Source: Escherichia phage vB_EcoM_TH18. From it: DNA of 64,000 bases. Under the pieces are notes generated by a model. The model worked only from the letters and a program-made list of their open reading frames with translations, was not told the DNA's origin and did not search any database. A program made the position numbers and the translations under genes. Shown one piece after another: positions 2,500-64,000 of the stretch (position 1 is the first letter of the stretch; each line of letters begins with the position of its first letter). The stretch lies in sequence record ON075799; one strand, 5' to 3'.

Positions 2500-3296
2500 T
2501 AAACCACCTTATTCAGCATAGCTGTGATTTTTGGTAAACTCATTTTCGTATTGATCATGAGTTGTGTTAATGCTGTTTCCATCTTTTCAGAAACAATAAT
2601 AAAATTATCTTTTGCGAACCCTAGTTCCAAATCCATAATAAGAATAGGTTTTGGTGTTTTTGTTAACTTTTCGCCTGTTAGAGAACAGGTGTTTCTTGAA
2701 TATTTAGCCTTAAATTGTGCATAAGTAACGCTAACATTCATACCTGCTTCTGCAAATGTTTTGCAGTAGTTTGCGTATGCAAGTGCAATCTCAACATCAT
2801 CAGGAAGAGATTTTTCTTTCATCTCTTCAACCTGCTCATCAATAATTACATTCTCTGTCTCTTTCATATCTTTTTCCGTAGGTATATATTTCAGTTTTAA
2901 CTTTTCCAGATGGTCTTTTGACATATTCAACATCATTCCTTGGACGATATCCATGTCAAGCGGATCTGCAATCGTTAGAGCTTTCTTTTTGTCTACAAGA
3001 AAATCTTTTAACTGGTTTGCTCTCTTACCGACTACACAAACGTTTCCACGAACATACCCTTTTTTGTCATCTATTCGTTCCACAGATGGGTAGAGAGGGT
3101 CATTAGGTGTTGCAGAAAAAGGTAGGCCTGTGTAATCACAAACACCTTTCCCAAGTAATCCTTTACCCATCATAAACCAGTCATCTTCTGTCAGATTAAA
3201 CTCTATACCCCTTGCTTTGGTATTTCTCTTTTTGAAAAAGAGTCGTGTTTTGAGATGCCTTATCTCTTTGGTTGTAAACTCTTCATTCCAGTCCAT
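2499..3296 (-). CDS. putative homing-endonuclease-like protein (HNH-type variant), free-standing
   Basis: motif 'GIEFNLTEDDW...CDYTG...PSVERIDDKKGYVRGNVCVV' resembles phage HNH-family nucleases; assignment from memory. Confidence 0.3.
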   Translation of the reverse strand: MDWNEEFTTKEIRHLKTRLFFKKRNTKARGIEFNLTEDDWFMMGKGLLGKGVCDYTGLPFSATPNDPLYPSVERIDDKKGYVRGNVCVVGKRANQLKDFLVDKKKALTIADPLDMDIVQGMMLNMSKDHLEKLKLKYIPTEKDMKETENVIIDEQVEEMKEKSLPDDVEIALAYANYCKTFAEAGMNVSVTYAQFKAKYSRNTCSLTGEKLTKTPKPILIMDLELGFAKDNFIIVSEKMETALTQLMINTKMSLPKITAMLNKVV

Positions 3297-10202: not shown

Positions 10203-10748
10203 ATGGGGCTTATTTGTCTGGAGTTAGTTTTGAAAATAAGATCTTTATTATTTGCTGTTTGCTGTGCACTTTCTCTGTCTATTACCCCTGTTCTAGCCAA
10301 AGAAAGTGCAAAGAAGCCCAGAGTTCTTCATGTTTGTAAGAAGAACGACACAGAGCTTAATATTCTTGCCTGCAATATGTATAAAGAAGGAAGAGGCGAA
10401 GGCGATTATGGAATGATGGGTGTTGCGTTTGTCACGTTGAACAGAAAGGATGACAAAAATTTCCCTCATACTATCAAGAAAGTAGTTTATCAACTTGGGC
10501 AATTCTCTTGGACATTCGGTGGACAATCCTTTAAAGTCTATGAAAAGGACAGATGGTTGAGAGCTAGATTTTATGCTAAAATCTTGATGAGGTTGCATAA
10601 AGACCACAAAAGTTTATACAAAGCTCTTGACTACACAAAATCAGCAACGTACTATCATGCAACTACTGTTAGGCCATCTTGGGCAAAAGTTATGGTGAAA
10701 ACAGTGAAGGTTGGGAATCATATTTTTTACAAGCATCCTGACGTATAA
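10203..10748 (+). CDS. secreted SleB-like cell-wall hydrolase (Hydrolase_2 family), endolysin candidate
   Basis: N-terminal signal-like hydrophobic segment; 'KEGRGE...GMMGVAFVTLNR...FPHTIKKVVYQLGQFS' SleB signature. Confidence 0.6.
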   Translation: MGLICLELVLKIRSLLFAVCCALSLSITPVLAKESAKKPRVLHVCKKNDTELNILACNMYKEGRGEGDYGMMGVAFVTLNRKDDKNFPHTIKKVVYQLGQFSWTFGGQSFKVYEKDRWLRARFYAKILMRLHKDHKSLYKALDYTKSATYYHATTVRPSWAKVMVKTVKVGNHIFYKHPDV

Positions 10749-10768
10749 CTAGTTCATAGAGGTATTGA

Positions 10769-12769
10769 ATGATTATTCAAAGATCTGACAACAAAGTTCA
10801 GGTAACTGGGAACGTAGAAAGATACCAAGCATCAATTGCAATGAATCCTGAGACGTTCAGTATTCTTATCGACGGAATTTATAAAGATAAACCTTTAGCA
10901 GCAGTACGAGAGCCTCTCTTTAACGCTGTAGATGCCCATACAGAGGCAGGGTGTTCTGATAAACCAATCATCATCCACTCACCAACAGACTTGGAGCCTT
11001 GGTATTCTGTTAAGGATACAGGGTTAGGTATGGATCATGAGATGGTAACACGTACATTCATGATGATTGGTGAGTCCACAAAAAGAAACAGTAATGATCT
11101 GGTTGGTGCGAAAGGTATTGGATCAAAAGCACCTCTTGCAGTCACAGATATGTTCACAGTTGTTTCTGTTAAAGACGGAGTGAAAACAACATATTCTGTT
11201 CACAAAAACAGCGGAATACCAGAGGTTGTACCTTTATTCTCTTGTGAAACAACAGAGGAGAATGGTGTAGAAATTAAATTTAACGTAAACACTTGGGAAA
11301 CAGGAGTTTATCGTCAGGCCATTGTAAAATGCCTTCGCTATGCTAAATTTCCATATATTATTAATGATCCTTTTGTTAAAACGCAGATTGAAGATCGTAC
11401 TTATCCTGTTCAGTATCGTTATGAGGATGAAGAGACTGGCTGGGTTCTTGAGATGTATAGTAGCATGTCGAGCAACGCTGATAGTGTTGTTATCATGGGG
11501 CAACAACCATATCTCTCCGATTATCTCTCAACTCGTAAAGAACTGCCCATGATGACGGTATCTATCCCTATTGGGGATTGTAATGTAGATCCAGGCCGAG
11601 AATGGACAGTGGAAGGAAAGAATGACGGAGGATTCCGTGATAAACTTGAAAATTTTGTGACTAAAGCTATCCGACTCCGCGGAGAAGAAATCACAAAAGA
11701 ATTAAGCGATCTGCCAACTTTAAAAGCAGTTCTTGAACATATGAAGTATGTTGGTGGTTATTTCGCTACAAAGTATGGTGCTGCATTTATTGCAAATAAG
11801 TTCAAGAATTATACTGATGGTTCTTACATAGACCACTGTGAAACATATGGTGGCGAAGGCTCACGCCGTGGTAAGGATGAGAAATATTCATACGCAGAGT
11901 TGATGAATGGTCATCCACTGGTTTACAATGATGATCACAAGTATGTGCGCTCTAAATGTAACTGGCTTGCAGAGAAGTTCGGTAAGAGATCGTTTATAAC
12001 CGATGCTGATTACGCTCTGTCCTTATACAGTGATAAATTCTTTGAAGGGATGATTTTCAAGTTATCTGAGCTTGAAAAACGACCAGTGCAAAAAGCAGAT
12101 AAAAAGTATGGTGGCTATGGTTATTACGAACCTGGTCATAAAGTTTGGATAATTAACCAAGATGGCCTCGTAGATGTAACACGTATTTCCCGTGCTCAAT
12201 TCGAGGATATTGAGACGGCTATGGTCTACTGGGGTGGGCAGGTGAAAGGATTATGCCCGTTAGGATACGTTTCCAATCTTAGAACAGTTTGGAGAAAGCA
12301 ACCACCAACATTTCTTAAGAATCTTGGTGTAGCTGGTAAGTTATATATTGTGCCTTTAAACAGATCAAGTTGGCTGCCAGATGAGGCGCGGGTTATAACT
12401 GAGGAGGATATCCATGCTCTTGCAAAAACTAATCTTCTTGAATATCATTTATACCAAGAAGTTGGGAAAGATCATGAGTATCATAACATTGTTAAAGAGC
12501 TTAGCTATTTTGGTGTGGTGGTAGCTAGTTTCCCAAAATGGGAGATGAAGGTAAACATACCCAGTTATTATTCAGTCCCTGGCTACGAAGATAGCCGTGA
12601 GAAAGCATTAGGGATGATTGAGTCTCGGAAGAGAATTGGTAAAAAGCTGCTACAGATTAAGAAAGATCGCTACCCATTGTTAAAATACATTGATGTTAAG
12701 CATTTCAATACTCCAGAGATGCTAGAGTATCGTAAATTTATTGACAGCAAAGGAGAAAAAGATGAGTAA
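10769..12769 (+). CDS. rIIA: rIIA-like protein with N-terminal GHKL (Hsp90/histidine-kinase-like) ATPase domain
   Basis: Bergerat motifs 'EPLFNAVDA', 'DTGLGMD', 'GAKGIGSKA'; followed by rIIB-like gene. Confidence 0.6.
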   Translation: MIIQRSDNKVQVTGNVERYQASIAMNPETFSILIDGIYKDKPLAAVREPLFNAVDAHTEAGCSDKPIIIHSPTDLEPWYSVKDTGLGMDHEMVTRTFMMIGESTKRNSNDLVGAKGIGSKAPLAVTDMFTVVSVKDGVKTTYSVHKNSGIPEVVPLFSCETTEENGVEIKFNVNTWETGVYRQAIVKCLRYAKFPYIINDPFVKTQIEDRTYPVQYRYEDEETGWVLEMYSSMSSNADSVVIMGQQPYLSDYLSTRKELPMMTVSIPIGDCNVDPGREWTVEGKNDGGFRDKLENFVTKAIRLRGEEITKELSDLPTLKAVLEHMKYVGGYFATKYGAAFIANKFKNYTDGSYIDHCETYGGEGSRRGKDEKYSYAELMNGHPLVYNDDHKYVRSKCNWLAEKFGKRSFITDADYALSLYSDKFFEGMIFKLSELEKRPVQKADKKYGGYGYYEPGHKVWIINQDGLVDVTRISRAQFEDIETAMVYWGGQVKGLCPLGYVSNLRTVWRKQPPTFLKNLGVAGKLYIVPLNRSSWLPDEARVITEEDIHALAKTNLLEYHLYQEVGKDHEYHNIVKELSYFGVVVASFPKWEMKVNIPSYYSVPGYEDSREKALGMIESRKRIGKKLLQIKKDRYPLLKYIDVKHFNTPEMLEYRKFIDSKGEKDE

Positions 12770-30354: not shown

Positions 30355-30540
30355 ATGAAATTTTTATCTGCATTAAGTATTCTCTTCATAGCATTAAAGT
30401 TGTGTGAGATTATAGACTGGTCTTGGTGGTTAGTTCTTGCCCCTCTATACCTACCATGGGCAATTGTTGTTGTTCCTCCTTTAATTATAGCAGTTACAGC
30501 TTTTGTGCTATCTTTTCTTCCAGAAAAAGATAAAAAATAA
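30355..30540 (+). CDS. small membrane protein (two predicted TM helices)
   Basis: 61 aa, 'LSILFIALKL' and 'LVLAPLYLPWAIVVVPPLIIAVTAFVL' hydrophobic segments. Confidence 0.45.
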   Translation: MKFLSALSILFIALKLCEIIDWSWWLVLAPLYLPWAIVVVPPLIIAVTAFVLSFLPEKDKK

Positions 30541-32131: not shown

Positions 32132-32156
32132 AAGTAACATTTGTTAATATAAAAAA

Positions 32157-32182
32157 GGGAGCTTTTAGCTCCCTTTTCTTTT
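32157..32182. terminator. bidirectional intrinsic terminator at convergence of early and late blocks
   Basis: GGGAGCT-TTT-AGCTCCC flanked by A6 and TTTTCTTTT. Confidence 0.6.
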
Positions 32183-32186
32183 GCTA

Positions 32187-34130
32187 TCACGCCACATTAA
32201 TATTAAATTTCGCCAACGGCGATGTAATGTCACCTTTACTGGTTGTTTGAACATATGCAACACCAAATAAAACCGTACCCGCAGCATATCCGTATTGTTT
32301 TACTTGATCTGCGTGGGTAAATGTGTAACTATTAGTGGTCAATGTTTGTTGAGATATAACATCCCCTGTCAGGACATCAAAGTTAACAAGGGAGAACTTG
32401 TTATAATCTCTGGTATCCCATGACAAAAGAATGTCTTGGTTAGCTTGTCTTACTGCCTTTCCTCCACTAGGAACTTTCATATCCACCCAAGCAGGAGGTG
32501 TGCTCGACAAGTCTTCCATGTTAGCCAAGGATATCGCAGCATTCTTATAAATTGTTGGTCGGTACTGTATTCTTAAACCATTACCTGCCCCAGAAACAAC
32601 ATAATTGCCATAGTCTTCAGCACCATCAACCCAAGAGCCAATTATAACGTCGCCATTGGAATCTGCCACCAACTGTTGTTGAATATTTCTATAACGATAC
32701 CACTCAACACCACCTACCTCAACACTACCATCAAAGCATCTACCAAGAGTCTGCAATACAATCTTGGCTTCTGGGTTTGCAATAGCAGAACGGATATTAT
32801 CAAAGATTGCGGTCATAGCAGACTGAAAACGAGCATCATCGCTATGTTTCCCTTCTTCTTTTGCTGCTGCCACCATAGCATCTTGCTCTCCTAACGACCA
32901 GAAAACAGCCTTAATTTTATCCTTATAAGGTTTAACCTTCGCAAGGAATTGTGTTAGACATGGACCTGCTGTGGAGGAACTAACGTCATACCAGTAATTT
33001 GTGGCTGGCCCTGTAGAGGAGTTTGCCTGTGCTTCTGCACAAGATGCAATGAATGTGGCATTTATTGGTAATACCTCTGCTGGGTAAAACCCTTTGTGAA
33101 GAGCATACTCATTACGTGCTACGGTTGCACTTTGGCTTGTTTTGTCCCTACCGGAAAAAGAATTAAAATGCGCTGCTGCGTTATCGCCGCCAGCAAAAAC
33201 AAGCACCTCTTTAACAAAAGAGTCGTCAACAGTAACATTATTATTAAAAGCTATAGGTATTGTTTCTGGATTTGATCCTTTGATGTGCACAATAAGATAT
33301 GTAGGGGCAAATCCAAAGATAGGGACTGACTCTGTAACATCAAAGAATACAAATGTGTCTTTGGTTTTCTTACTCCACACAACCTCCATCCCCTCAGAGT
33401 CATAAACCTCTACGGTATAAATATCATCCGAGGAGGGAAATTGAACATCCCACGCTATCTTAATGTCACCATAGCTGTTGGCTACAGCAGTAGGATTTGT
33501 AAGTGCTGGAGCTATATCTACATATACATCGGTAAGTGTCGTTACTATCACATCTCTATAGGTTCCTTTCATACCACAATGCCCGACACCTCTACCAGCA
33601 CATGTAATGATACCACTAGGAGCCAGACTTAATACATCAGGTGTTTCAGAAACTGCGGTGACATAAAAATCATCATCCTCCATAACTTCTGCTGGAGAGA
33701 TGTTAAAGCCAATCATATTCCTATTCGGATTGCCTGGGTCAAAAGACGGGTCGCCTTTATAGACAAACCAGAATCTATCTCCAACACTTCTACTGCCTAT
33801 AGGATCAACATCAATGCGTAATGTGTCAACATGACCATTGATTTGTGCTGTCAAGGTCTTTTCTTCATCTCCTTTACCCGTCTTTGCAGACATTGTAATG
33901 ATAAAATCACCATCTTCAAGAAAAGATACTAACCCTGTAGGGTCAACAGATACAATCGTCGGTTTGTCTGGTGTAAACGTTATATCATGCAAGTCTGCAC
34001 CTTCCGGCACAACAGACCATATTAATTGTGCTTTGCCTCCTTTAAGACACGTACCGAGGGAGGTTAAGGAAACGGAGTTGGCTAGAGGGTTATTGGAAAT
34101 AATGATATAAAAACAAGGAATTGGATACAT
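32187..34130 (-). CDS. tail fiber/tailspike protein, possibly with carbohydrate esterase-like domain
   Basis: 648 aa from ATG 34130 (RBS AGGAGG); position in fiber cluster; esterase call is weak. Confidence 0.45.
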   Translation of the reverse strand: MYPIPCFYIIISNNPLANSVSLTSLGTCLKGGKAQLIWSVVPEGADLHDITFTPDKPTIVSVDPTGLVSFLEDGDFIITMSAKTGKGDEEKTLTAQINGHVDTLRIDVDPIGSRSVGDRFWFVYKGDPSFDPGNPNRNMIGFNISPAEVMEDDDFYVTAVSETPDVLSLAPSGIITCAGRGVGHCGMKGTYRDVIVTTLTDVYVDIAPALTNPTAVANSYGDIKIAWDVQFPSSDDIYTVEVYDSEGMEVVWSKKTKDTFVFFDVTESVPIFGFAPTYLIVHIKGSNPETIPIAFNNNVTVDDSFVKEVLVFAGGDNAAAHFNSFSGRDKTSQSATVARNEYALHKGFYPAEVLPINATFIASCAEAQANSSTGPATNYWYDVSSSTAGPCLTQFLAKVKPYKDKIKAVFWSLGEQDAMVAAAKEEGKHSDDARFQSAMTAIFDNIRSAIANPEAKIVLQTLGRCFDGSVEVGGVEWYRYRNIQQQLVADSNGDVIIGSWVDGAEDYGNYVVSGAGNGLRIQYRPTIYKNAAISLANMEDLSSTPPAWVDMKVPSGGKAVRQANQDILLSWDTRDYNKFSLVNFDVLTGDVISQQTLTTNSYTFTHADQVKQYGYAAGTVLFGVAYVQTTSKGDITSPLAKFNINVA

Positions 34131-34146
34131 TACTCCTCCTAAAACA

Positions 34147-34166
34147 AAGGCCACAACTGTGGCCTT
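34147..34166 (-). terminator. intrinsic terminator/attenuator between fiber genes
   Basis: AAGGCCAC-AACT-GTGGCCTT then TTTGTTTT on minus strand. Confidence 0.45.
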
Positions 34167-34171
34167 TTATA

Positions 34172-35926
34172 TTATGGTTGTGGTCTGCGGACAATAACAG
34201 TGTCAACAACCCCATCTTCAACACCATTAAATGTCAATTGAAGGATGGTAACTGAATTTGCTGCTGTATTAACAGTTTCACTGTTAAGGACAACATAATT
34301 AGGATCCAGAGTTATACTGTGTCCACCTGTGGCATCCTGCGTCAGATAAATCATAGCGGAGAAAGGTTGTTGTGGGTCAGGCCATGCTCCGATTGTCAGA
34401 TTCTTATTCACTGTGACATTATAAATGTTGGATGTGCCACTTGGTGTCCATGTTGCCGTTGGGTCGCCAACTTCTTCCGATTGTAAAGTTAGGAAACCCA
34501 CATTGGTGGAAGAAAGTTGTGTCTGACCGTTAACAAATAACTGATTTGTCGTTACACTATTTTGGGAAGAGAGAGATGCTACGTTAACATTCTGACCTGT
34601 TAAATCAATCGTAATACCGGATACAGTTCCCTTGACAATCAAATTGTTTACTGTCGTTGTGCCAGAAGATCTATTTAAGACTACATCACCATCAGAGACA
34701 ATTTTACCAAGGTTAGAAGTTCCGTTAACCGTCAGATCACCGTCTACAGATCCGTCGCCAGTCGCAGTGAATCCCTCCCCCAAAGTTAATAGCCCTGTGA
34801 CATTACCAGTTGTAGAGGAGAAATCTTTGAGGCTGGCTTGCCCATTAACAACAAGGTTGTTAGTAACTTCTAAGCTCTCACATGTTGTACTGTTGAGATT
34901 GGTATTACCATTGACTTGTAAATCACCACCTACAGTAACCCCTTGTGCCGTTGTTACAGAATTAGGCGAGATATCTTCCCCATTGACAGAAAAAGAAAGT
35001 CCTGTTACAGTACCTGTAATCTTTAAGTTTTCAAGCTCTGTCATCCCAGAAACTTTAAGACGAGCTTCAGAGGGGTCTTTTTTAGAGTTGCCTGTAATAT
35101 AAACATAGTCGAAGGTATTATTACCAAGACCTGTGAAAGACATTGTTGTATTGTCTGCTACTGGCACACCGTTTATAATGATGTCTGTATGTAGCTGATG
35201 TGTCTGCGCTGAGTATGCTTCAAGCCTTGTTTTTATAAACGTCGGGTTAGAATCATCACTGTAGGCAAAAGATAAACTTGAATTATCTTTTGTTAAGATA
35301 AGATTCTGGAATTTTCCTGTTTGATTGTCAGCGTTAACAGGCCCATTAAATGTTGATACACCGCCAACAGAAAGCGTATTAAGACTCGCTAAACCTGTTA
35401 CAGTAAGATCCGCGAATGTACCATTTCCACCCGCAATCCCAGCTAAAGCAGTAGCAATAGCTCTAGTAACGAATTGTGTTGTTGCTAGTGTTGTGCTGTT
35501 ACTATCTGCTGATGGTGTTGGTGCTTGAGGGTTCCCTGTAAAGATAGGACTGTCAATAGGCGCAAATAGTTGCGACATAGATTCTGAATCGTTGTATAAT
35601 CTCCAGTTAACATTGTTGATCGGGTTAGAAGGCAACACCACCGGAGAGCTTTCAGTTGCACCGGGGGCATACCACCATTGGACACCTCTTTCCCCTGTAT
35701 AAGCATACAACTGATTAAATACTGTTGCCTGTTGCCCAGCAACCCACGGCAGTGGAGGTGTTTTAAAGAATAAATTGTCAAAAAATGCTTTTCTGACTGT
35801 AGGTATCAGACTACCATCCTCTGTAACTACAGTTTCAGTTGCTGTTCCATTGACAATTTTATGAAGGCGTTCAGAATCTTCTACAACCTGATCTACCGCC
35901 TGTTCAAATTTAGTCATGTCCGCCAC
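34172..35926 (-). CDS. tail fiber protein
   Basis: 'SPIFTGNPQAPTPSADSNSTTLATTQFV' conserved fiber N-region motif; Gly/Thr/Asn/Ser-rich repeats. Confidence 0.65.
   Translation of the reverse strand: MADMTKFEQAVDQVVEDSERLHKIVNGTATETVVTEDGSLIPTVRKAFFDNLFFKTPPLPWVAGQQATVFNQLYAYTGERGVQWWYAPGATESSPVVLPSNPINNVNWRLYNDSESMSQLFAPIDSPIFTGNPQAPTPSADSNSTTLATTQFVTRAIATALAGIAGGNGTFADLTVTGLASLNTLSVGGVSTFNGPVNADNQTGKFQNLILTKDNSSLSFAYSDDSNPTFIKTRLEAYSAQTHQLHTDIIINGVPVADNTTMSFTGLGNNTFDYVYITGNSKKDPSEARLKVSGMTELENLKITGTVTGLSFSVNGEDISPNSVTTAQGVTVGGDLQVNGNTNLNSTTCESLEVTNNLVVNGQASLKDFSSTTGNVTGLLTLGEGFTATGDGSVDGDLTVNGTSNLGKIVSDGDVVLNRSSGTTTVNNLIVKGTVSGITIDLTGQNVNVASLSSQNSVTTNQLFVNGQTQLSSTNVGFLTLQSEEVGDPTATWTPSGTSNIYNVTVNKNLTIGAWPDPQQPFSAMIYLTQDATGGHSITLDPNYVVLNSETVNTAANSVTILQLTFNGVEDGVVDTVIVRRPQP
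35514..35554. repeat. 41-bp exact DNA repeat (copy 1) shared with 58173..58213
   Basis: GGTGTTGGTGCTTGAGGGTTCCCTGTAAAGATAGGACTGTC, encodes 'DSPIFTGNPQAPTP' on minus strand. Confidence 0.8.
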
Positions 35927-35936
35927 AAGAATCTCC

Positions 35937-36200
35937 TTATTGGTCTGACTCTTCTCTACGTTGTGATTCTACACCCCAGCGTAGGGATATTAACTTACTT
36001 ATTAACTGTGGAGCAGCCACTGTGGGGGCATACACCCACATATACCACTCCGTTAATGTGCCTTTGAAACCCCAATCTAAAAAAACTGCTGTCATTGCAG
36101 CTAATCCGATATTACTCCAAAATTTAGTGTGGGAGGCCTTTTCTGGATTTACTGGGGATCTGACAAGATCTTTTAAAAATTTCAATATTGATTTTAGCAT
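35937..36200 (-). CDS. small membrane protein (holin-like topology)
   Basis: 87 aa, hydrophobic segments then charged C-terminus 'ESQRREESDQ'. Confidence 0.4.
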   Translation of the reverse strand: MLKSILKFLKDLVRSPVNPEKASHTKFWSNIGLAAMTAVFLDWGFKGTLTEWYMWVYAPTVAAPQLISKLISLRWGVESQRREESDQ

Positions 36201-36215
36201 AATACATTAGAATCC

Positions 36216-36689
36216 TCAATAATTTACTCCAGGAACAATTCTGGCTATAATTATGAAACCAACAACAACAGAAGTCTCAAGCAATTCTTTTATTGTACCG
36301 CTTTTGTATGCGGCGCATAATAAAAGAACTTCCATAAATGTTGGATATGATGAATTTATCGTGAAGCCTAATGCGTTTGGTAAAATAAATGGGAACTGCA
36401 TAACTAAAATTTGGCAAAACAGAACAGGAAGAGATAGTACAAGCATTAGCTTTTTTCTCCATCCTGTCAAAACACATGCAGTAAAGAAAATCAGAGATAT
36501 ATCAAGGAACCAACAGAAAGTTAGGTAGAGTGACAAGTCAAATGCGTAGATATGGTAACAGAACCACCAGTATAATATATTCTCTGACACGATATGAACC
36601 ATGCCAAATACTGACATGGCTCGGATCCCCTTATCATTATCAAGAAGTAGCACTGCAAAGCATATAAAGTACAGTGCAGAACTTATCAT
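36216..36689 (-). CDS. polytopic membrane protein
   Basis: 157 aa with about four hydrophobic helices. Confidence 0.5.
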   Translation of the reverse strand: MISSALYFICFAVLLLDNDKGIRAMSVFGMVHIVSENILYWWFCYHIYAFDLSLYLTFCWFLDISLIFFTACVLTGWRKKLMLVLSLPVLFCQILVMQFPFILPNALGFTINSSYPTFMEVLLLCAAYKSGTIKELLETSVVVGFIIIARIVPGVNY

Positions 36690-37000
36690 TTCATTTGGCT
36701 CTCTATAAGAATTTTAAGTTGATCTATAAGATCAACTCTCAAACTGCTCACATCCTCTTTTAAATCTTTTCTAAAATCTGAAACATCGTCGCGGACAGCT
36801 TTCAGCTTTTTATCAAGAATCTCATCAAGTTTCTCTTTAGTGACCATCTCTGCCTTAATTCTTATGATGTCCCTATCAAGTTCATCAAGACGTTGTTGTG
36901 TCTTTTTATAGTCTGAGTATGTTAACTTCAGAACACCAACTAAGAAAAACGTCAATACGCCCCATACGGCTTTTAAGATAGCAAATAGGTCAATAGACAT
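36686..37000 (-). CDS. membrane-anchored coiled-coil protein (i-spanin-like topology)
   Basis: N-terminal TM 'LFAILKAVWGVLTFFLVGVL' then charged coiled coil. Confidence 0.45.
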   Translation of the reverse strand: MSIDLFAILKAVWGVLTFFLVGVLKLTYSDYKKTQQRLDELDRDIIRIKAEMVTKEKLDEILDKKLKAVRDDVSDFRKDLKEDVSSLRVDLIDQLKILIESQMK

Positions 37001-37011
37001 TCTTTAGCTCC

Positions 37012-37596
37012 TTAATCAACAGATGGTCTTAGAGGCCACTCTATGTTTGGGGCATCCTCTGTTTTAATGCTTAGTATTTCACAACGATACATCTTCAGTT
37101 TCTTAAGCGTGTCCTCCATGTGTTTCGGTAGTTTTTTACCTGTTACCTGTTCATAGTCCCCATATGTTTGGATATATTGACTTGCCCAAGCAATTTCCTT
37201 ATCCTTGCGGAGTTTTGCTTCCTGTATAGATCGAAAATAGGTATAAGCAAATTCTCCATCTTTAAATGCCACGTCACCGAGGTCATACTCAATGCCTTTA
37301 GGCAAATTTTCTACCGAAACAACGGCTATTTTCCATCCGCTGAAAGGAGTACACCCATCAAAACCTTCATAGCAAACGCAGCAAACCCTATCGTCGAGGT
37401 CCAGCGAAAGAAAGGCATATTTTCCCGGATCTATTTGGGAGTTCAATTCTTCTGCTATTTCATAATAGTCTTTCCCCGTGGATTCTTCGTAGAAAAAAGG
37501 GGCGAAAGGGTTAACTTCCAACAATCTTTTCGTGGCTCCTGTTGCATTATCAGGGAGGGGAGAATAAGGGAAAAATGGTCCAAATATTTTGTTCAT
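37012..37596 (-). CDS. hypothetical protein (possible tail fiber assembly factor)
   Basis: directly downstream of fiber gene; no motif. Confidence 0.35.
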   Translation of the reverse strand: MNKIFGPFFPYSPLPDNATGATKRLLEVNPFAPFFYEESTGKDYYEIAEELNSQIDPGKYAFLSLDLDDRVCCVCYEGFDGCTPFSGWKIAVVSVENLPKGIEYDLGDVAFKDGEFAYTYFRSIQEAKLRKDKEIAWASQYIQTYGDYEQVTGKKLPKHMEDTLKKLKMYRCEILSIKTEDAPNIEWPLRPSVD

Positions 37597-37613
37597 GCAA
37601 CTCTCCTGAATGA

Positions 37614-38708
37614 TTACACTCTACTTACGTTGTGCCAGACACCATTAACTTGTTTCTGGATGTATGCATAGTAAACCCCACCAATGTTGTCTGCTGAGTT
37701 TTTACCAACATCTTGAGGATAGATACCTGTCATAACTGCACCCGCTGGCGCTTGCCAGTTCCAAGATATTTCGTTACCACCGGGCCAGTACCATGTGTTA
37801 CCTGTTAATCTAACATCTTGAACACCACCTGTTTGGATATTGACATTGCCGTTACCATCTGCACCAACACCATTAACAGATCTTACGATATTTCTCCCAG
37901 CAACTGTAGCAGAGTTATTATTTACAATTAGTGCATTTACGTTTGCTGTCCCATTAACTCTTGCAGATGGTGTTGTTAATGAGCTTGTTGCTACAACAGT
38001 CTGACCTTGAATTTGTCCTGTAGCCGTCAAAGAGGATGTTCTTGTTGTGGTGAATGTTGCATTTGTGCCATTAACATTTGTTCCTTGTACAGTGCCTGTG
38101 GCAACAACATTTCCTGTTACTTTACACAAAGCCGCTGAGGAGCTAATAGCATTAAGCTCCATCATAGTAAACATCCCAGAGTTACCTGAAGGAGAGAATC
38201 GGAAACGTATAGAATCTACACCGTTTGTCCCTGCTGTTCCTGGATTATCTCCAAGAACAAAATCCCAGTACGTCCAGTCAGAAGCTGGATTCGTAGTTGT
38301 GATATACGCAGTATCTGTTTCAGAAGGTTGAAAATTCAATCTCGGCAATGACAAAGCTCCTGTCATTGTATCTCCCGTTACATTCACGTAACGGTTGTCG
38401 GCTTCTGATCTACTCCACACATCAAGGTTGATTCTGGATGTTTCCTTGTCAGCTAAATCAGACAGATTTTCACTTCTTCTTAAAAATCTTGTATCTAATT
38501 CAGGTATCTGATCTCCTGTAACATATTTTATCCAACTTGTCATCATATAAAGAACATAGTTAAATTCTTCACAAGCTGGTTTTTCTCCCATATCCCAACC
38601 TTTTAACCAAAGATCGTCAATAGGTCTTATTTTATTCTCCCCATGAGTATTAGGGAGAATCACATCTCCCGCTGCCCAAATCTCGATTGGTATACTTGGT
38701 ATAGCCAT
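37614..38708 (-). CDS. tail fiber protein
   Basis: 'VTGDTMTGAL' fiber motif, Thr/Gly/Asn-rich C-terminal region. Confidence 0.6.
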   Translation of the reverse strand: MAIPSIPIEIWAAGDVILPNTHGENKIRPIDDLWLKGWDMGEKPACEEFNYVLYMMTSWIKYVTGDQIPELDTRFLRRSENLSDLADKETSRINLDVWSRSEADNRYVNVTGDTMTGALSLPRLNFQPSETDTAYITTTNPASDWTYWDFVLGDNPGTAGTNGVDSIRFRFSPSGNSGMFTMMELNAISSSAALCKVTGNVVATGTVQGTNVNGTNATFTTTRTSSLTATGQIQGQTVVATSSLTTPSARVNGTANVNALIVNNNSATVAGRNIVRSVNGVGADGNGNVNIQTGGVQDVRLTGNTWYWPGGNEISWNWQAPAGAVMTGIYPQDVGKNSADNIGGVYYAYIQKQVNGVWHNVSRV

Positions 38709-38723
38709 AAAAGTATCTCCTTC

Positions 38724-40787
38724 TTAAACTTCTGGTGGGGTATCTTTTAAATACCCTTTCAATGCTGTATGCCCCATATGAAAGACTGCGGATTGAGAGT
38801 TGTGCACTGTTATAGAATCATGCATTACTTGTGGATACGCCCATATGTATTGATAAATATCTGGAAACTTAAACTCATTAAGAACAATGTTCCCTATAAT
38901 CATTTTCCAAAGATATTCTCTATAATTAGAATTAGGGTCAAATCCGTATAATGGTGCTAGCCCTTCGTCTGGAACAAATCCTGCCAGATAATGTATCTTA
39001 TCTTCTTTAAATTTTAAGACATCTCGCGGAATGGTGATGGCCTGGAATGATTTTTCCATTTTTCCTTGAAGTAACCAGTCATAGCACTCGGAGCAATAGA
39101 AATCAAAATTCTCAGGTGTATAACTACCACTAGGGAAATTTATCTTTTCCATAATACCATTACCAATAATGGATGGTAAGAACGGTAAAAGTGTTATTTT
39201 TGCATTAGGATAAGATTTTTTAAGATCAGCACCGAATTTTACCACTCGCTCTCCTAGACACTGTCTTAGAAAATCTACATACTCATCATAGGGCGTTCCG
39301 GTCTTAAAGTCATAAATTGTTCCCATGTCTTGAGCATACAATCCAGTCTCTTCATTAAAACGCGCTTTTGTAGTATAATCATACACACAAGGTAAATTTG
39401 TAGCAGTATTATACCACCACCAAGGTTCCCCTATCTGAATGATAACAACCTGGTTAACTTGTTCGCATGTGGCTGCTATTTTATTTATTACACTTTGGAT
39501 ATATTGCATACCCTCGTTAATATTAGGTGATAATACCCAACTTGGTGGTGTGTATCCTGTTTCAGCTAATGCATCATTCCAGTCGTGCTGAACCCACTCT
39601 GGAGGACAAACTGTACTCATCAACTCAAAACTAATAGAATTGATAACCTTATAACCATTTGCTCGTGTCAGTGCGAAATAGTTATTCATCCATTGTAGGG
39701 TTGCATTATTGACAGGGACATCTTTGTTCAGTTTCCATGCGGAGCTTTCCCAAGAGAACTCGTAATAATGCGACATACCATTATAGTGATTTATCATATC
39801 TCTATAACCGAGTTTTAAGCAGTTATCCACCACTCTCTCCGGTGTAAGATTATACATATCATCATAAGATGTACACATGCGTATATCATGAGCAGGAATT
39901 GTCAAATTATTAACTCTCATCATTGTATAGCCTGTATCAGGCTCTTTAAGAGTTATTTTCAACATAAGATTCTGATTTTCTTTAGGGACAATATCTTCTC
40001 CTTCTGCATACTTCTCAGATATCATAGAAAAGAAAAACTGATCCACTTGAGAGGTATCCACTGCCACGTCCACATCAGGACCAGATTTTAAATTTGAAAA
40101 ATCAAGTTTGATTGTGGCCCTTTTATAATCCTCGCTGATATCTTCAGCATAAGCGTACAGAGGGATATAATGGGTTGCCCCATCTAAAAGTTTAAGAGTT
40201 AATGTTGGGGTCAATTTCTCATTATTGAAATCAGGCATTCCGTCGCCCAACTCTATATCGAACCACAGTTTAGCGTTTCGAAGGTCTGTGTGATCTTGAA
40301 AAGAGATCCCTTTATGATCATACTTATCTTTTGTGCTCCAAATAACCCCTGCCAGACCACTGACAGTTCTATTAGTCATATAAGCTGTAAGTATATTACC
40401 ATTAGATATTATAGAGCAACTTTCTGTGGGTTGAGAATCAATTGTCCAATATTTAGGTAGAAACATTTTCTCTTCTTTTGTTCCCCATCCCAACTCAGAC
40501 ATGTCCTCCTTGGTGCTAATAACACATCTGGAAGCCAGCCTGTCTAGCCTTGCACCAAAAGACGGGTTACTCATTTTTAAAGTAAATTCCCTTGGTAATG
40601 AGTTTTTAGGATGTTGTTTTATCTCCACAGGTATTTGTACAGACTTTTCCCCTTTAGGAATTGTTGCCGTACCTACCTTGGGTGTGTAATCTCTTCCAGC
40701 AATAGCTGTGTTTGATATTGTTTCATAGTCAAAGCTAACAGCTACAGAGTCATCTTCTCTTCTGGCTGTGAAAATAGCCTCTGCCAT
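38724..40787 (-). CDS. tailspike/tail-associated protein with N-terminal Calx-beta-like domain
   Basis: 'DYETISNTAIAGRDYT...GEKSVQIPVEI' Calx-beta-like; 687 aa in fiber cluster. Confidence 0.5.
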   Translation of the reverse strand: MAEAIFTARREDDSVAVSFDYETISNTAIAGRDYTPKVGTATIPKGEKSVQIPVEIKQHPKNSLPREFTLKMSNPSFGARLDRLASRCVISTKEDMSELGWGTKEEKMFLPKYWTIDSQPTESCSIISNGNILTAYMTNRTVSGLAGVIWSTKDKYDHKGISFQDHTDLRNAKLWFDIELGDGMPDFNNEKLTPTLTLKLLDGATHYIPLYAYAEDISEDYKRATIKLDFSNLKSGPDVDVAVDTSQVDQFFFSMISEKYAEGEDIVPKENQNLMLKITLKEPDTGYTMMRVNNLTIPAHDIRMCTSYDDMYNLTPERVVDNCLKLGYRDMINHYNGMSHYYEFSWESSAWKLNKDVPVNNATLQWMNNYFALTRANGYKVINSISFELMSTVCPPEWVQHDWNDALAETGYTPPSWVLSPNINEGMQYIQSVINKIAATCEQVNQVVIIQIGEPWWWYNTATNLPCVYDYTTKARFNEETGLYAQDMGTIYDFKTGTPYDEYVDFLRQCLGERVVKFGADLKKSYPNAKITLLPFLPSIIGNGIMEKINFPSGSYTPENFDFYCSECYDWLLQGKMEKSFQAITIPRDVLKFKEDKIHYLAGFVPDEGLAPLYGFDPNSNYREYLWKMIIGNIVLNEFKFPDIYQYIWAYPQVMHDSITVHNSQSAVFHMGHTALKGYLKDTPPEV

Positions 40788-54061: not shown

Positions 54062-54466
54062 ATGAAAAATATTTTAAAAATTACAATTGGCCTGTGCGTC
54101 TGTGCTGTTATTGCAGCGGGAACTCTCCAATATGTGAAAAAGAACCCAGACATTAATGATTATAAATCTGTCGAGGCAAGTTGGTTGTCGCCAGAAGAAA
54201 AAGATGAGGCAATCAGCCGTATTGTGCAATTATCTTGCGATAAAAGATTCAGAGAAGCATTTAAGCCAGACGTTATTGTTGTGTCATCAGGCTTTGAAGG
54301 CAGGATCGCAGAGCAAGCGGAAGCATATCAATATTTTGATGATGTCGCAATTATCTCAGGAAAACAATCTTACACTGGAAAATACATCTGTACTTTTTAC
54401 AAAGATGGGCGTGAACCGTATATTAATGCAAACTTGAATAAGGGAGTACAAGAACTCCTAAAATAA
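54062..54466 (+). CDS. small secreted or membrane-anchored protein encoded by an opposite-strand moron in the late region
   Basis: 134 aa, N-terminal signal-like 'MKNILKITIGLCVCAVIAAG'; own promoter and terminator. Confidence 0.55.
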   Translation: MKNILKITIGLCVCAVIAAGTLQYVKKNPDINDYKSVEASWLSPEEKDEAISRIVQLSCDKRFREAFKPDVIVVSSGFEGRIAEQAEAYQYFDDVAIISGKQSYTGKYICTFYKDGREPYINANLNKGVQELLK

Positions 54467-63774: not shown

Positions 63775-64000
63775 TTATATTCTTTTATACAAGGTAGGAG
63801 CTACAATTTTTGGAATAACAACAGGTTTGACTATTTCTTCTTTTTCAAGATAATTTATCCCAGAAGAAATGGCGTCGACCCAATCGTCTTTTCTTGTCGT
63901 TGTACTCCTTTCCCCATTGAACTTTTCAAGCTCTGTCATAAGGGCTTCATAAGTTTTAGGATCAAAACTATCACGAACTATTCTCACCATACCTGCTTGA
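63775..64000 (-). CDS. 3' end of a larger gene truncated by window edge (likely terminase large subunit C-terminus)
   Basis: reading frame open to position 64000; '...RKDDWVDAISSGINYL' ; position upstream of portal. Confidence 0.4.
   Translation of the reverse strand, partial: QAGMVRIVRDSFDPKTYEALMTELEKFNGERSTTTRKDDWVDAISSGINYLEKEEIVKPVVIPKIVAPTLYKRI

Follow-up and report, generated by a model that had tools for sequence, protein, structure and literature searches.

Three small genes for membrane proteins, here called p104, p157 and p87, lie between two tail fiber genes on the minus strand of Escherichia phage vB_EcoM_TH18 (ON075799), a member of the genus Avunavirus in the subfamily Vequintavirinae (rV5-like myoviruses). 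In rV5-type and related myoviruses this trio has long been inherited together as part of the tail-fiber block; it is not detected in virions, and we consider p87 and p104 to be the best candidates for the holin function that the lineage is missing, with a probability of about 0.4. The descriptive anatomy of the locus can be given with high confidence. The window analyzed is a 64-kb stretch of this phage, to which all positions refer unless another locus is named; sequence beyond the window was taken from OK136180.1 (Escherichia phage 18-1-2, partial genome; 100% identity, collinear coordinates). L-numbers (L001, L006 and so on) label comparison loci, with positions in each locus's own numbering. 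The genes of the block and its boundaries are as follows.

34172..35926, minus strand: 584-aa tail fiber, the downstream boundary; phrog_4549 (E=1e-220); it starts 10 nt past the p87 stop codon
35937..36200, minus strand: p87, 87 aa; phrog_1322; candidate class-II-type holin
36216..36689, minus strand: p157, 157-aa polytopic inner-membrane protein; phrog_7451; accessory, missing from rV5-type phages
36686..37000, minus strand: p104, 104 aa, one N-terminal transmembrane domain (TMD) and a coiled coil; phrog_5345
37012..37596, minus strand: p194, 194 aa, Tfa chaperone of the upstream 364-aa fiber; Caudo_TAP, phrog_136
37614..38708, minus strand: 364-aa tail fiber, the upstream boundary; phrog_4465 (E=5e-133); conserved N-terminal attachment domain

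A sequence-only reading of this DNA had described four minus-strand open reading frames (ORFs) between two fiber genes; the coordinates are as it claimed, and both flanks give strong tail-fiber PHROG matches. The genes are real rather than chance ORFs, with homologs in 374 (p87), 221 (p104) and 106 (p157) phage records. Intergenic gaps measure 10-17 nt, p104 and p157 overlap by ATGA, and a Shine-Dalgarno ribosome-binding site is present for every gene. Between the four genes no internal promoter or terminator was found, and the spacing leaves no room for one. This tight packing points to co-transcription of p194 and the trio with the late fiber genes, of which the 364-aa fiber carries the name 'short tail fiber' in the BASEL annotation.

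That earlier reading counted the 194-aa soluble protein as part of the cluster. Solubility stands, whereas membership of a cassette does not, because p194 matches Pfam Caudo_TAP (PF02413; 26.2 bits against a cutoff of 22.1, residues 88-191) and phrog_136 (E=1.3e-16), both of which denote a fiber chaperone. Its gene begins 17 nt after that of the 364-aa fiber, its client. The fiber-then-Tfa arrangement is common to Av-05, PVP-SE1-type phages, CB7, rV5, Bas54 and an Aeromonas phage described below, and counterparts of p194 are annotated Tfa in Av-05, GEC_vB_MG (PVP-SE1-type), CB7, rV5 and Bas54. Since p194 is a Tfa protein, the unit of interest is reduced to the three membrane proteins p104, p157 and p87.

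Functional evidence comes from a HIDEN-SEQ transposon screen of Bas54 (phage MaxBurger, genus Vequintavirus), published as a preprint (bioRxiv 10.1101/2025.11.20.689424), in which we mapped the homologs by locus tag at 31% (p104) and 51% (p87) identity. The genes that matter here are listed with their TA-site counts and the resulting call.

bas54_0037, p104 homolog: 1/20 TA sites; Essential
bas54_0039, p87 homolog: 0/19 TA sites; Essential
bas54_0032-0036, 0038 and 0040, baseplate, fibers and Tfa (0035 is the homolog of the 364-aa fiber and 0040 that of the 584-aa fiber): low; Essential
bas54_0031, upstream fiber in the same operon: 180/221; Non-essential
bas54_0041, downstream fiber: 281/336; Non-essential
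bas54_0115, the BASEL 'putative holin' with two strong TMDs (L032 11221-11592): 27/28; Non-essential
bas54_0065, SleB-type hydrolase beside rIIA: 32/36; Non-essential
bas54_0202, endolysin: 0/24; Essential

With the same method the lysis genes T4 t and the Bas37 holin received zero insertions, and the transposon carries no terminator, the authors arguing against widespread polar effects (bioRxiv 10.1101/2025.11.20.689424). The phage tolerates insertions in the 3' ends of essential genes and in the intergenic DNA just ahead of such genes (TA 5238, 6642, 6649 and 3163-3191), and polarity in the Bas54 screen appears weak.

Bas54 has a soluble endolysin with 62% identity to λ R; an enzyme of this type depends on a canonical holin, and the holin gene should in turn be essential. 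No established holin is reported in the literature for Vequintavirinae. The authors of the rV5 genome proposed gp129 (L029 159-395) as the holin; the corresponding region of Bas54 contains no essential gene, and gp129 is confined to the genus Vequintavirus. When the Bas54 essential unknowns, spanins and Tfa were scanned for hydrophobic segments, credible TMDs beyond those of the spanins appeared only in 0037, 0039 and 0110; a fourth protein, 0017, is encoded just before the tape measure gene, in a tail-chaperone position. Protein 0110 has 117 aa with an N-terminal TMD, is encoded in the early region, occurs in Vequintavirus only (119 records) and has no counterpart in the window. In Bas54, the homologs of p87 and p104 are the only subfamily-wide essential membrane proteins besides the spanins.

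As the earlier reading had noticed, the only lysin-like gene in the window encodes a SleB-type hydrolase with a signal peptide (10203-10748, plus strand). The signal peptide looks cleavable, between …PVLA and KE, and the gene lies directly upstream of rIIA (10203-12769 for the pair, plus strand). In Bas54, the SleB-type hydrolase (bas54_0065), rIIA and rIIB are all non-essential, and the dispensability of bas54_0065 means that the SleB-type enzyme is not the main endolysin there. Lysins of this type occur in 1,229 records, many of them without the trio, so that co-occurrence with the trio is uninformative. The endolysin partner in Avunavirus lies outside the 79 kb examined. A CRISPRi-ART study in Vequintavirus EdH4 covered capsid and rII genes only, and no related phage features in two further Tn-seq preprints.

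A holin function for p87 and p104 is favoured because the lineage has no validated holin, because T4 provides a precedent in its gene order g37, g38, t, which is seen in the HIDEN-SEQ table (bioRxiv 10.1101/2025.11.20.689424), and because elimination within the Bas54 essential set leaves these two proteins. Under this reading p87 would be the hole-former, permeabilising the cytoplasmic membrane at a set time so that a soluble endolysin encoded elsewhere could reach the cell wall, and p104 would be an essential membrane-tethered partner or co-holin. Because rV5 has no p157, that protein would be an optional accessory modulator. The spanin pair next to the terminase would complete lysis afterwards, and the only use of lying in the fiber operon would be late expression of the genes, as for gene t after g37-g38 in T4. 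Further points counted in favour are the late operon position, the size of p87 with its two TM-length helices, aromatic belts and charged C-tail, the uniform predicted topology of p104 (29/29) and the failure to detect the trio in CB7 and rV5 virions. To our knowledge, the small, late, essential integral membrane proteins of characterised tailed phages that go undetected in virions are holins. What survives of the non-canonical lysis cassette suggested by the sequence-only reading is the idea of p87, possibly with p104, as a lysis protein, and the Bas54 elimination strengthens it; p194 and an i-spanin role fall away.

Known lysis systems offer partial parallels. T4 holin t is likewise an essential late lysis gene at the end of an operon for fibers and a fiber chaperone, apart from the endolysin. 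Its product T has 218 aa, one TMD and a large periplasmic domain in an N-in/C-out arrangement. No sequence similarity was detected, however; the present locus has three membrane proteins, and two further structural genes follow them in the operon. Compared with class II holins and pinholins (for example phage 21 S68), p87 has the same small size, two predicted TM-length helices, predicted N-in/C-in topology, a charged hydrophilic C-terminus and presumed late expression; p87 differs in its weakly hydrophobic helices, its acidic C-tail, the lack of a dual-start motif and the lack of an adjacent endolysin. In PBSX, XhlA, a coiled-coil membrane protein, and XhlB, a two-TMD holin of about 87 aa, are both needed for lysis, the TMD of XhlA being C-terminal. 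A similar pairing of a TMD and coiled-coil protein with a small two-helix protein would explain why the homologs of both p104 and p87 are essential, although the PBSX system belongs to a Gram-positive host and has an adjacent endolysin, and XhlA is not among the listed Pfam matches of the p104 family. Finally, P2 LysA, a 141-aa polytopic lysis-timing protein from a late structural operon, resembles p157 in that the latter is a polytopic protein of about 150 aa, encoded in a late morphogenetic operon and dispensable at the level of lineages; p157 differs in having invariant intramembrane acidic residues, and the two have no sequence similarity (hhalign 0.8%).

p87 consists of an N-terminal basic amphipathic helix, two TM-length helices (about residues 24-46 and 51-74; 23-24 residues each) with invariant Trp/Tyr belts, and a variable acidic C-tail, and it carries a conserved juxtamembrane motif, SHTK(F/L)WSN(I/V)G. 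This layout is compatible with an N-in/C-in hairpin, the topology of class II holins. The name DUF2644, attached to p87 by one precomputed tag and one nr entry, did not come up when 28 members were scanned against Pfam at E<=1, and no literature on it was found. The earlier description of the 157-aa protein as polytopic agrees with the AlphaFold2 (AF2) model of p157, a bundle of 6-7 helices (pLDDT 78, pTM 0.75), in which E36/N37, D63 and E120 are invariant intramembrane residues. p157 carries the precomputed Pfam tag PF26221; structure comparison gave no specific relatives, only resemblance to unnamed phage proteins of about 150 aa. Since rV5 does without it, p157 counts as dispensable on the scale of lineages.

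p104 has one strong N-terminal TMD (residues ~5-26, Kyte-Doolittle (KD) hydropathy 2.2-2.3) followed by a 77-aa charged helical/coiled-coil domain. In all 29 family members the stretch ahead of the TMD (mean net charge -1.1) lacks Lys and Arg, and the 15 residues that follow the TMD include 3 of them, a charge pattern that predicts an N-out/C-in topology with the coiled coil in the cytoplasm. An exhaustive profile search of 1.84 billion representatives returned ~17 full-length p104 clusters of 100-112 aa, all with the distinctive conserved core LEKD(I/V)IR.K..MVTK(D/E)xLDExLD(R/K)K. In every lineage compared, a p104-type gene directly follows Tfa. In phi92-type phages this gene encodes a protein of ~113 aa that the p104 profile matches (hhalign 77%, P=2e-5), with PHROG matches in both directions; it is probably a p104 homolog, judging from these profiles, so that the family would span both subfamilies. 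The ~113-aa gene (PHB05, L005 8891-9232; also L025 and L027) is annotated 'lipoprotein' and belongs to phrog_15210/phrog_462. We reject that label, as the protein has no cysteine and an acidic N-terminus before the TMD. Likewise, the name DUF2746 given to one p104 homolog was not reproduced with current Pfam.

Because of its N-terminal TMD and coiled coil, features shared with the i-spanin of the λ Rz/Rz1 two-component system, the sequence-only reading had called p104 i-spanin-like. The anchor and the coiled coil hold; the likeness to an i-spanin does not. The predicted topology is the reverse of that of real i-spanins in all 29 members, the phage's own i-spanin carrying +3 before its TMD. A six-frame lipobox scan of 35900-37650, following up the earlier suggestion of an embedded o-spanin, yielded no ORF whose signal peptide and lipobox were credible. 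The p104 family contains no Cys residues and has no spanin match in Pfam or NCBIfam; an hhalign comparison of p104 with the phage's own i-spanin gave nothing (7 columns aligned), and sub-threshold Rz-like PHROG matches are limited to distant relatives (phrog_739, E=0.05 for CB7 and 9e-4 for the phi92-type protein). Moreover, a canonical overlapping i-/o-spanin pair lies just beyond the window, at 67584-68275 of OK136180.1 (L006 7585-8276), immediately upstream of the intron-split terminase: a 133-aa protein with TMD and coiled coil, and a 97-aa proline-rich lipoprotein with lipobox LTGC (MKKCVIMVPFLLLMLTGC...). This position beside the terminase is reported for rV5, PVP-SE1 and CB7 (PMC7344957), and the Bas54 annotation places the pair there as well. 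p104 was accordingly rejected as an i-spanin, and the idea that it works with an embedded or adjacent o-spanin in a holin and spanin cassette is barely credible.

It is also improbable, though less so, that p104 does the work of the 'releasin' gp25 of Mu as a functional analogue, helping to free or activate an endolysin that is secreted or tethered to the membrane (here the SleB-type hydrolase). Mu gp25 is a 99-aa protein of N-out/C-in topology with ~4 periplasmic residues and a 73-aa cytoplasmic domain, and phage DUF2730 genes all lie near the endolysin (within ~5 genes) in transposable Mu-like phages (PMC9239132). p104 has the same size, architecture and charge pattern, with ~4 external residues, a cytoplasmic helical domain of ~75 aa and a place on a late transcript; a weak hhalign alignment is collinear from the N-terminus (P=0.003), and the phage does encode a SleB-type lysin with a signal sequence. 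Nevertheless, homology is not borne out: PF10805 matches 0/39 near and distant members of the p104 family, against 2.5e-13 for Mu gp25 itself, and the Pfam search found neither DUF2730 nor DUF2746 in the family. The hhalign probability of p104 against Mu gp25 is 10%, falling to 2.5% with a broader profile, and the rV5 homolog reaches phrog_736 with E=0.11 only. Relatives of Mu gp25 from viral contigs gave the profile no further depth, all being 94-100% identical. The p104 gene sits in the fiber block of a virulent myovirus of ~140 kb that is not Mu-like, with the lysins tens of kb away, and the signal peptide of the SleB-type lysin looks cleavable (VLA before KE) rather than like a signal-anchor-release (SAR) sequence. 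In Bas54, the SleB-type hydrolase is dispensable yet the p104 homolog is essential, and the essential endolysin is soluble and not SAR; p104 therefore cannot act through the SleB enzyme alone.

Comparison across phages bears on the remaining alternatives. The 374 records with p87 span Vequintavirinae, Stephanstirmvirinae, and Aeromonas and Pseudomonas phages, and the gene always lies within the baseplate/fiber block. The order Tfa-p104-p157-p87-fiber is common to Avuna-, Seuna- and Certrevirus, and in rV5 and Bas54 a fiber gene takes the place of p157. In phi92-type phages and Pseudomonas phage PsgM04F, Tfa is still followed by a p104-type gene. The whole six-gene block fiber-Tfa-p104-p157-p87-fiber is found in order in Aeromonas phage vB_AceP_PAc (OP718284.1, Plateaulakevirus), with the following matches to TH18 (identity, length, E-value).

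364-aa fiber, N-terminus: 42%, 113 aa, 1e-28
Tfa, C-terminus: 40%, 45 aa, 9e-4
p104: 29%, 104 aa, 1e-15
p157: 21%, 97 aa, 6e-6 (weak)
p87: 32%, 68 aa, 2e-14
584-aa fiber, N-terminus: 41%, 122 aa, 7e-29

The p157 position of vB_AceP_PAc is occupied by an unannotated 146-aa polytopic ORF (L026 3468-3908, plus strand) with ~5-6 hydrophobic stretches, in a 544-bp annotation 'gap'; its hhalign score against p157 is 3%, and the pairwise similarity is weak.

Within the genus, against Av-05, identity is 100% for p104, 97% for p157 and 99% for p87, whereas Tfa has been swapped (31%) and the 364-aa fiber has a changed tip (84%). Against Seunavirus the values are 79% for p104, 68% for p157 and 86% for p87, with 78-79% for baseplate proteins and 52-60% for fibers. 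Against phi92-type phages, p104 gives no direct match, p157 none, and p87 31-39%, the baseplate proteins standing at 30-37%. Because the identity of the trio holds steady while fiber and Tfa are swapped, the trio is, by comparison of sequences, a core-like component, not a receptor-linked or accessory one. The swap looks like that of a host-range cassette (37012-38708 against L001 10513-12138 of Av-05): differences in the 364-aa fiber presumably lie toward the tip, the flanking protein resembling a non-contractile tail sheath protein shows 98% identity, and recombination may have used the conserved flanks as anchors. A further difference in arrangement is seen in rV5-type phages, where an 89-bp gap follows the p104 homolog (MaxBurger L031 38810-38898, between bas54_0037 and bas54_0038). 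It contains a hairpin and T-run (AGAACGGAAAGGACTCCGTTCT TGCATTTTGTTCT) and an A/T-rich promoter-like stretch, and no such gap occurs in the window; in rV5-type phages fiber-Tfa-p104 may end one transcription unit.

Published virion data include no trace of the trio. In CB7, Tfa and CB7_33-35 lack the 'MS/MS confirmed' note that every flanking structural protein carries, and gp29, gp31 and Tfa are missing from the rV5 mass spectrometry (MS) table of 19 identified proteins, although such negatives are weak because small hydrophobic proteins are easily missed. The earlier reading had held that finding these proteins as structural components of purified virions would speak against it; they were not detected in either dataset, a weak negative that is consistent with p104, p157 and p87 being non-structural.

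Several observations weigh against a holin function. The hydrophobicity of p87 is weak (maximum KD17 1.12), its AF2 model has low confidence (pLDDT 65), and the TMHMM/Phobius scan of the rV5 authors listed no TMD for its homolog gp29. The 'holin-like topology' ascribed to the 87-aa protein is thus plausible for its two TM-length helices and charged tail but not firm. The C-tail is acidic rather than basic, which is atypical for holins, and p87 matches no holin family in Pfam, PHROGs or NCBIfam; Phage_holin_9 was hit by 1/28 members at E=0.17, and hhalign against P2 holin Y gave 0.1%. Nor did sequence or fold tie the trio to a known holin, releasin or spanin family. The trio stands beside an endolysin in none of the lineages compared. 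The essentiality data concern homologs at 31-51% identity and not TH18's own genes, they do not separate lysis from assembly, the neighbouring fiber and Tfa genes being essential too, and Bas54 0110 remains an alternative holin within the genus Vequintavirus. In phi92-type phages and PsgM04F, p87 lies directly upstream of a baseplate J-like (wedge) gene and overlaps its start, and p87 evolves at the rate of the baseplate proteins.

This overlap and this rate would equally suit a role for the trio as membrane-anchored morphogenetic factors, that is, a non-virion assembly platform or co-chaperone for short fibers or baseplate at the inner face of the cytoplasmic membrane, with p157 optional. Conservation of the six-gene order from Escherichia to Aeromonas phages, retention of a p104-type protein after Tfa in phi92-type phages and PsgM04F, and the constant place of p87 directly before a fiber or baseplate-wedge gene all agree with such a role, as do the baseplate-like rate, weak hydrophobicity and acidic tail of p87. 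The Tfa chaperone also goes undetected in virions, the Bas54 homologs are essential as are the adjacent fiber and Tfa genes, and the predicted cytoplasmic location of the p104 coiled coil is the compartment of fiber folding. On the other hand, we know of no integral-membrane tail or fiber assembly factor that has been described, so that a precedent is lacking. p104 is 100% identical beside a Tfa swapped to 31% and a changed fiber tip, with no co-variation with the client; T4 t is likewise syntenic with fibers, so synteny alone does not discriminate; and Bas54 would be left without a subfamily-wide essential holin candidate. We consider a morphogenetic role the main rival, somewhat less probable than the holin reading, and slightly less likely still is the specific form in which p104 and p87 (with p157) make up a membrane-anchored platform where the essential short fibers of rV5/phi92-type myoviruses mature or attach. 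The sequence-only reading had also offered an exclusion or host-takeover module. In favour of superinfection exclusion, receptor masking or host takeover, as by T5 Llp, HK97 gp15 or T4 Imm/Sp, are the PHROG category of p87 ('moron, auxiliary metabolic gene and host takeover') and the closeness to receptor-binding genes; the sizes and topologies of T4 Imm and Sp loosely resemble the trio. However, the genes lack a promoter of their own within a late operon, their conservation from Escherichia to Aeromonas hosts equals or exceeds that of the baseplate, fiber/Tfa exchange leaves them invariant, they match no PADLOC defence family, and their homologs are essential for plaque formation on a laboratory strain, as an exclusion or accessory gene would not be. 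This proposal is largely refuted and very improbable, and the holin function of p87 and p104 remains the reading that we prefer.

Regarding the wider layout of the window, composition divides it into a plus-strand early/middle block (~4-32 kb) and a minus-strand structural block (32-64 kb), with a GC-skew switch at ~32 kb. Other features noted are listed here.

30355-30540, plus strand: 61-aa protein that closes the plus-strand block, having two strong TMDs and PEKDKK as its short basic tail; phrog_1374, weak Pfam Tmemb_185A match
32153..32177, no strand assigned: bidirectional terminator-like hairpin with an 11-bp stem, at the junction of the minus-strand late operon with the convergent plus-strand block
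32187-34154, minus strand: 655-aa protein ending the operon; Big_2 and a weak SASA (acetylesterase) signal
38724-40787, minus strand: 687-aa protein upstream of the 364-aa fiber; Calx-beta with 'non-contractile tail sheath' N-terminal and TIM-barrel domains (PF23844/PF23845)
54062-54466, plus strand: 134-aa protein with an N-terminal TMD, encoded opposite to the surrounding head/tail block; phrog_11434 'membrane protein'
63775-63990, minus strand, continuing at L006 3776-7489 (extract of OK136180.1): large terminase, a split gene inside which the window ends

The 61-aa protein is a conceivable other holin or pinholin candidate; it was set aside, as its relatives align at the first TMD only and none is annotated holin. 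The 134-aa gene has the appearance of a moron-like insertion. The counterpart of the 687-aa protein is labelled a glycosidase/deacetylase lateral fiber in BASEL, and the 687-aa and 655-aa proteins probably bind receptors and modify glycans. The gene for the large terminase is in three pieces, with intervening sequence holding an HNH homing endonuclease, as described for rV5. Finally, ~16-21 'Campylobacter phage' records (MG0656xx) are near-identical to rV5-type Escherichia phages over the genes searched and probably represent mislabelled or contaminated isolates.

The rV5-like (Vequintavirinae) and phi92-like phages are broad-host-range myoviruses in wide use for phage therapy and biocontrol. 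Of their lysis system, endolysins and spanins are known. Published holin assignments for rV5-like phages (rV5 gp129, the BASEL 'putative holin' and CB7_82) are guesses; Bas54 allows a check on two of them, and both prove dispensable there. The present analysis narrows the holin search to two membrane proteins of the fiber operon, both small, late, essential and deeply conserved, and it removes two labels, 'i-spanin-like' for p104 and 'lipoprotein' for its phi92-type homolog. For phage engineering, it means that fiber tip and Tfa can be swapped as host-range cassettes and that the adjacent trio must stay intact. If the morphogenetic reading were true, there would be a membrane-bound step in tail-fiber assembly, and a membrane platform would rank as the first tail-morphogenesis factor integral to a membrane and would account in molecular terms for old electron-microscopy observations of membrane-associated phage tails. 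If the lysis reading is true, p87 and p104 would define a new family of holins in which a tethered coiled-coil partner is obligatory.

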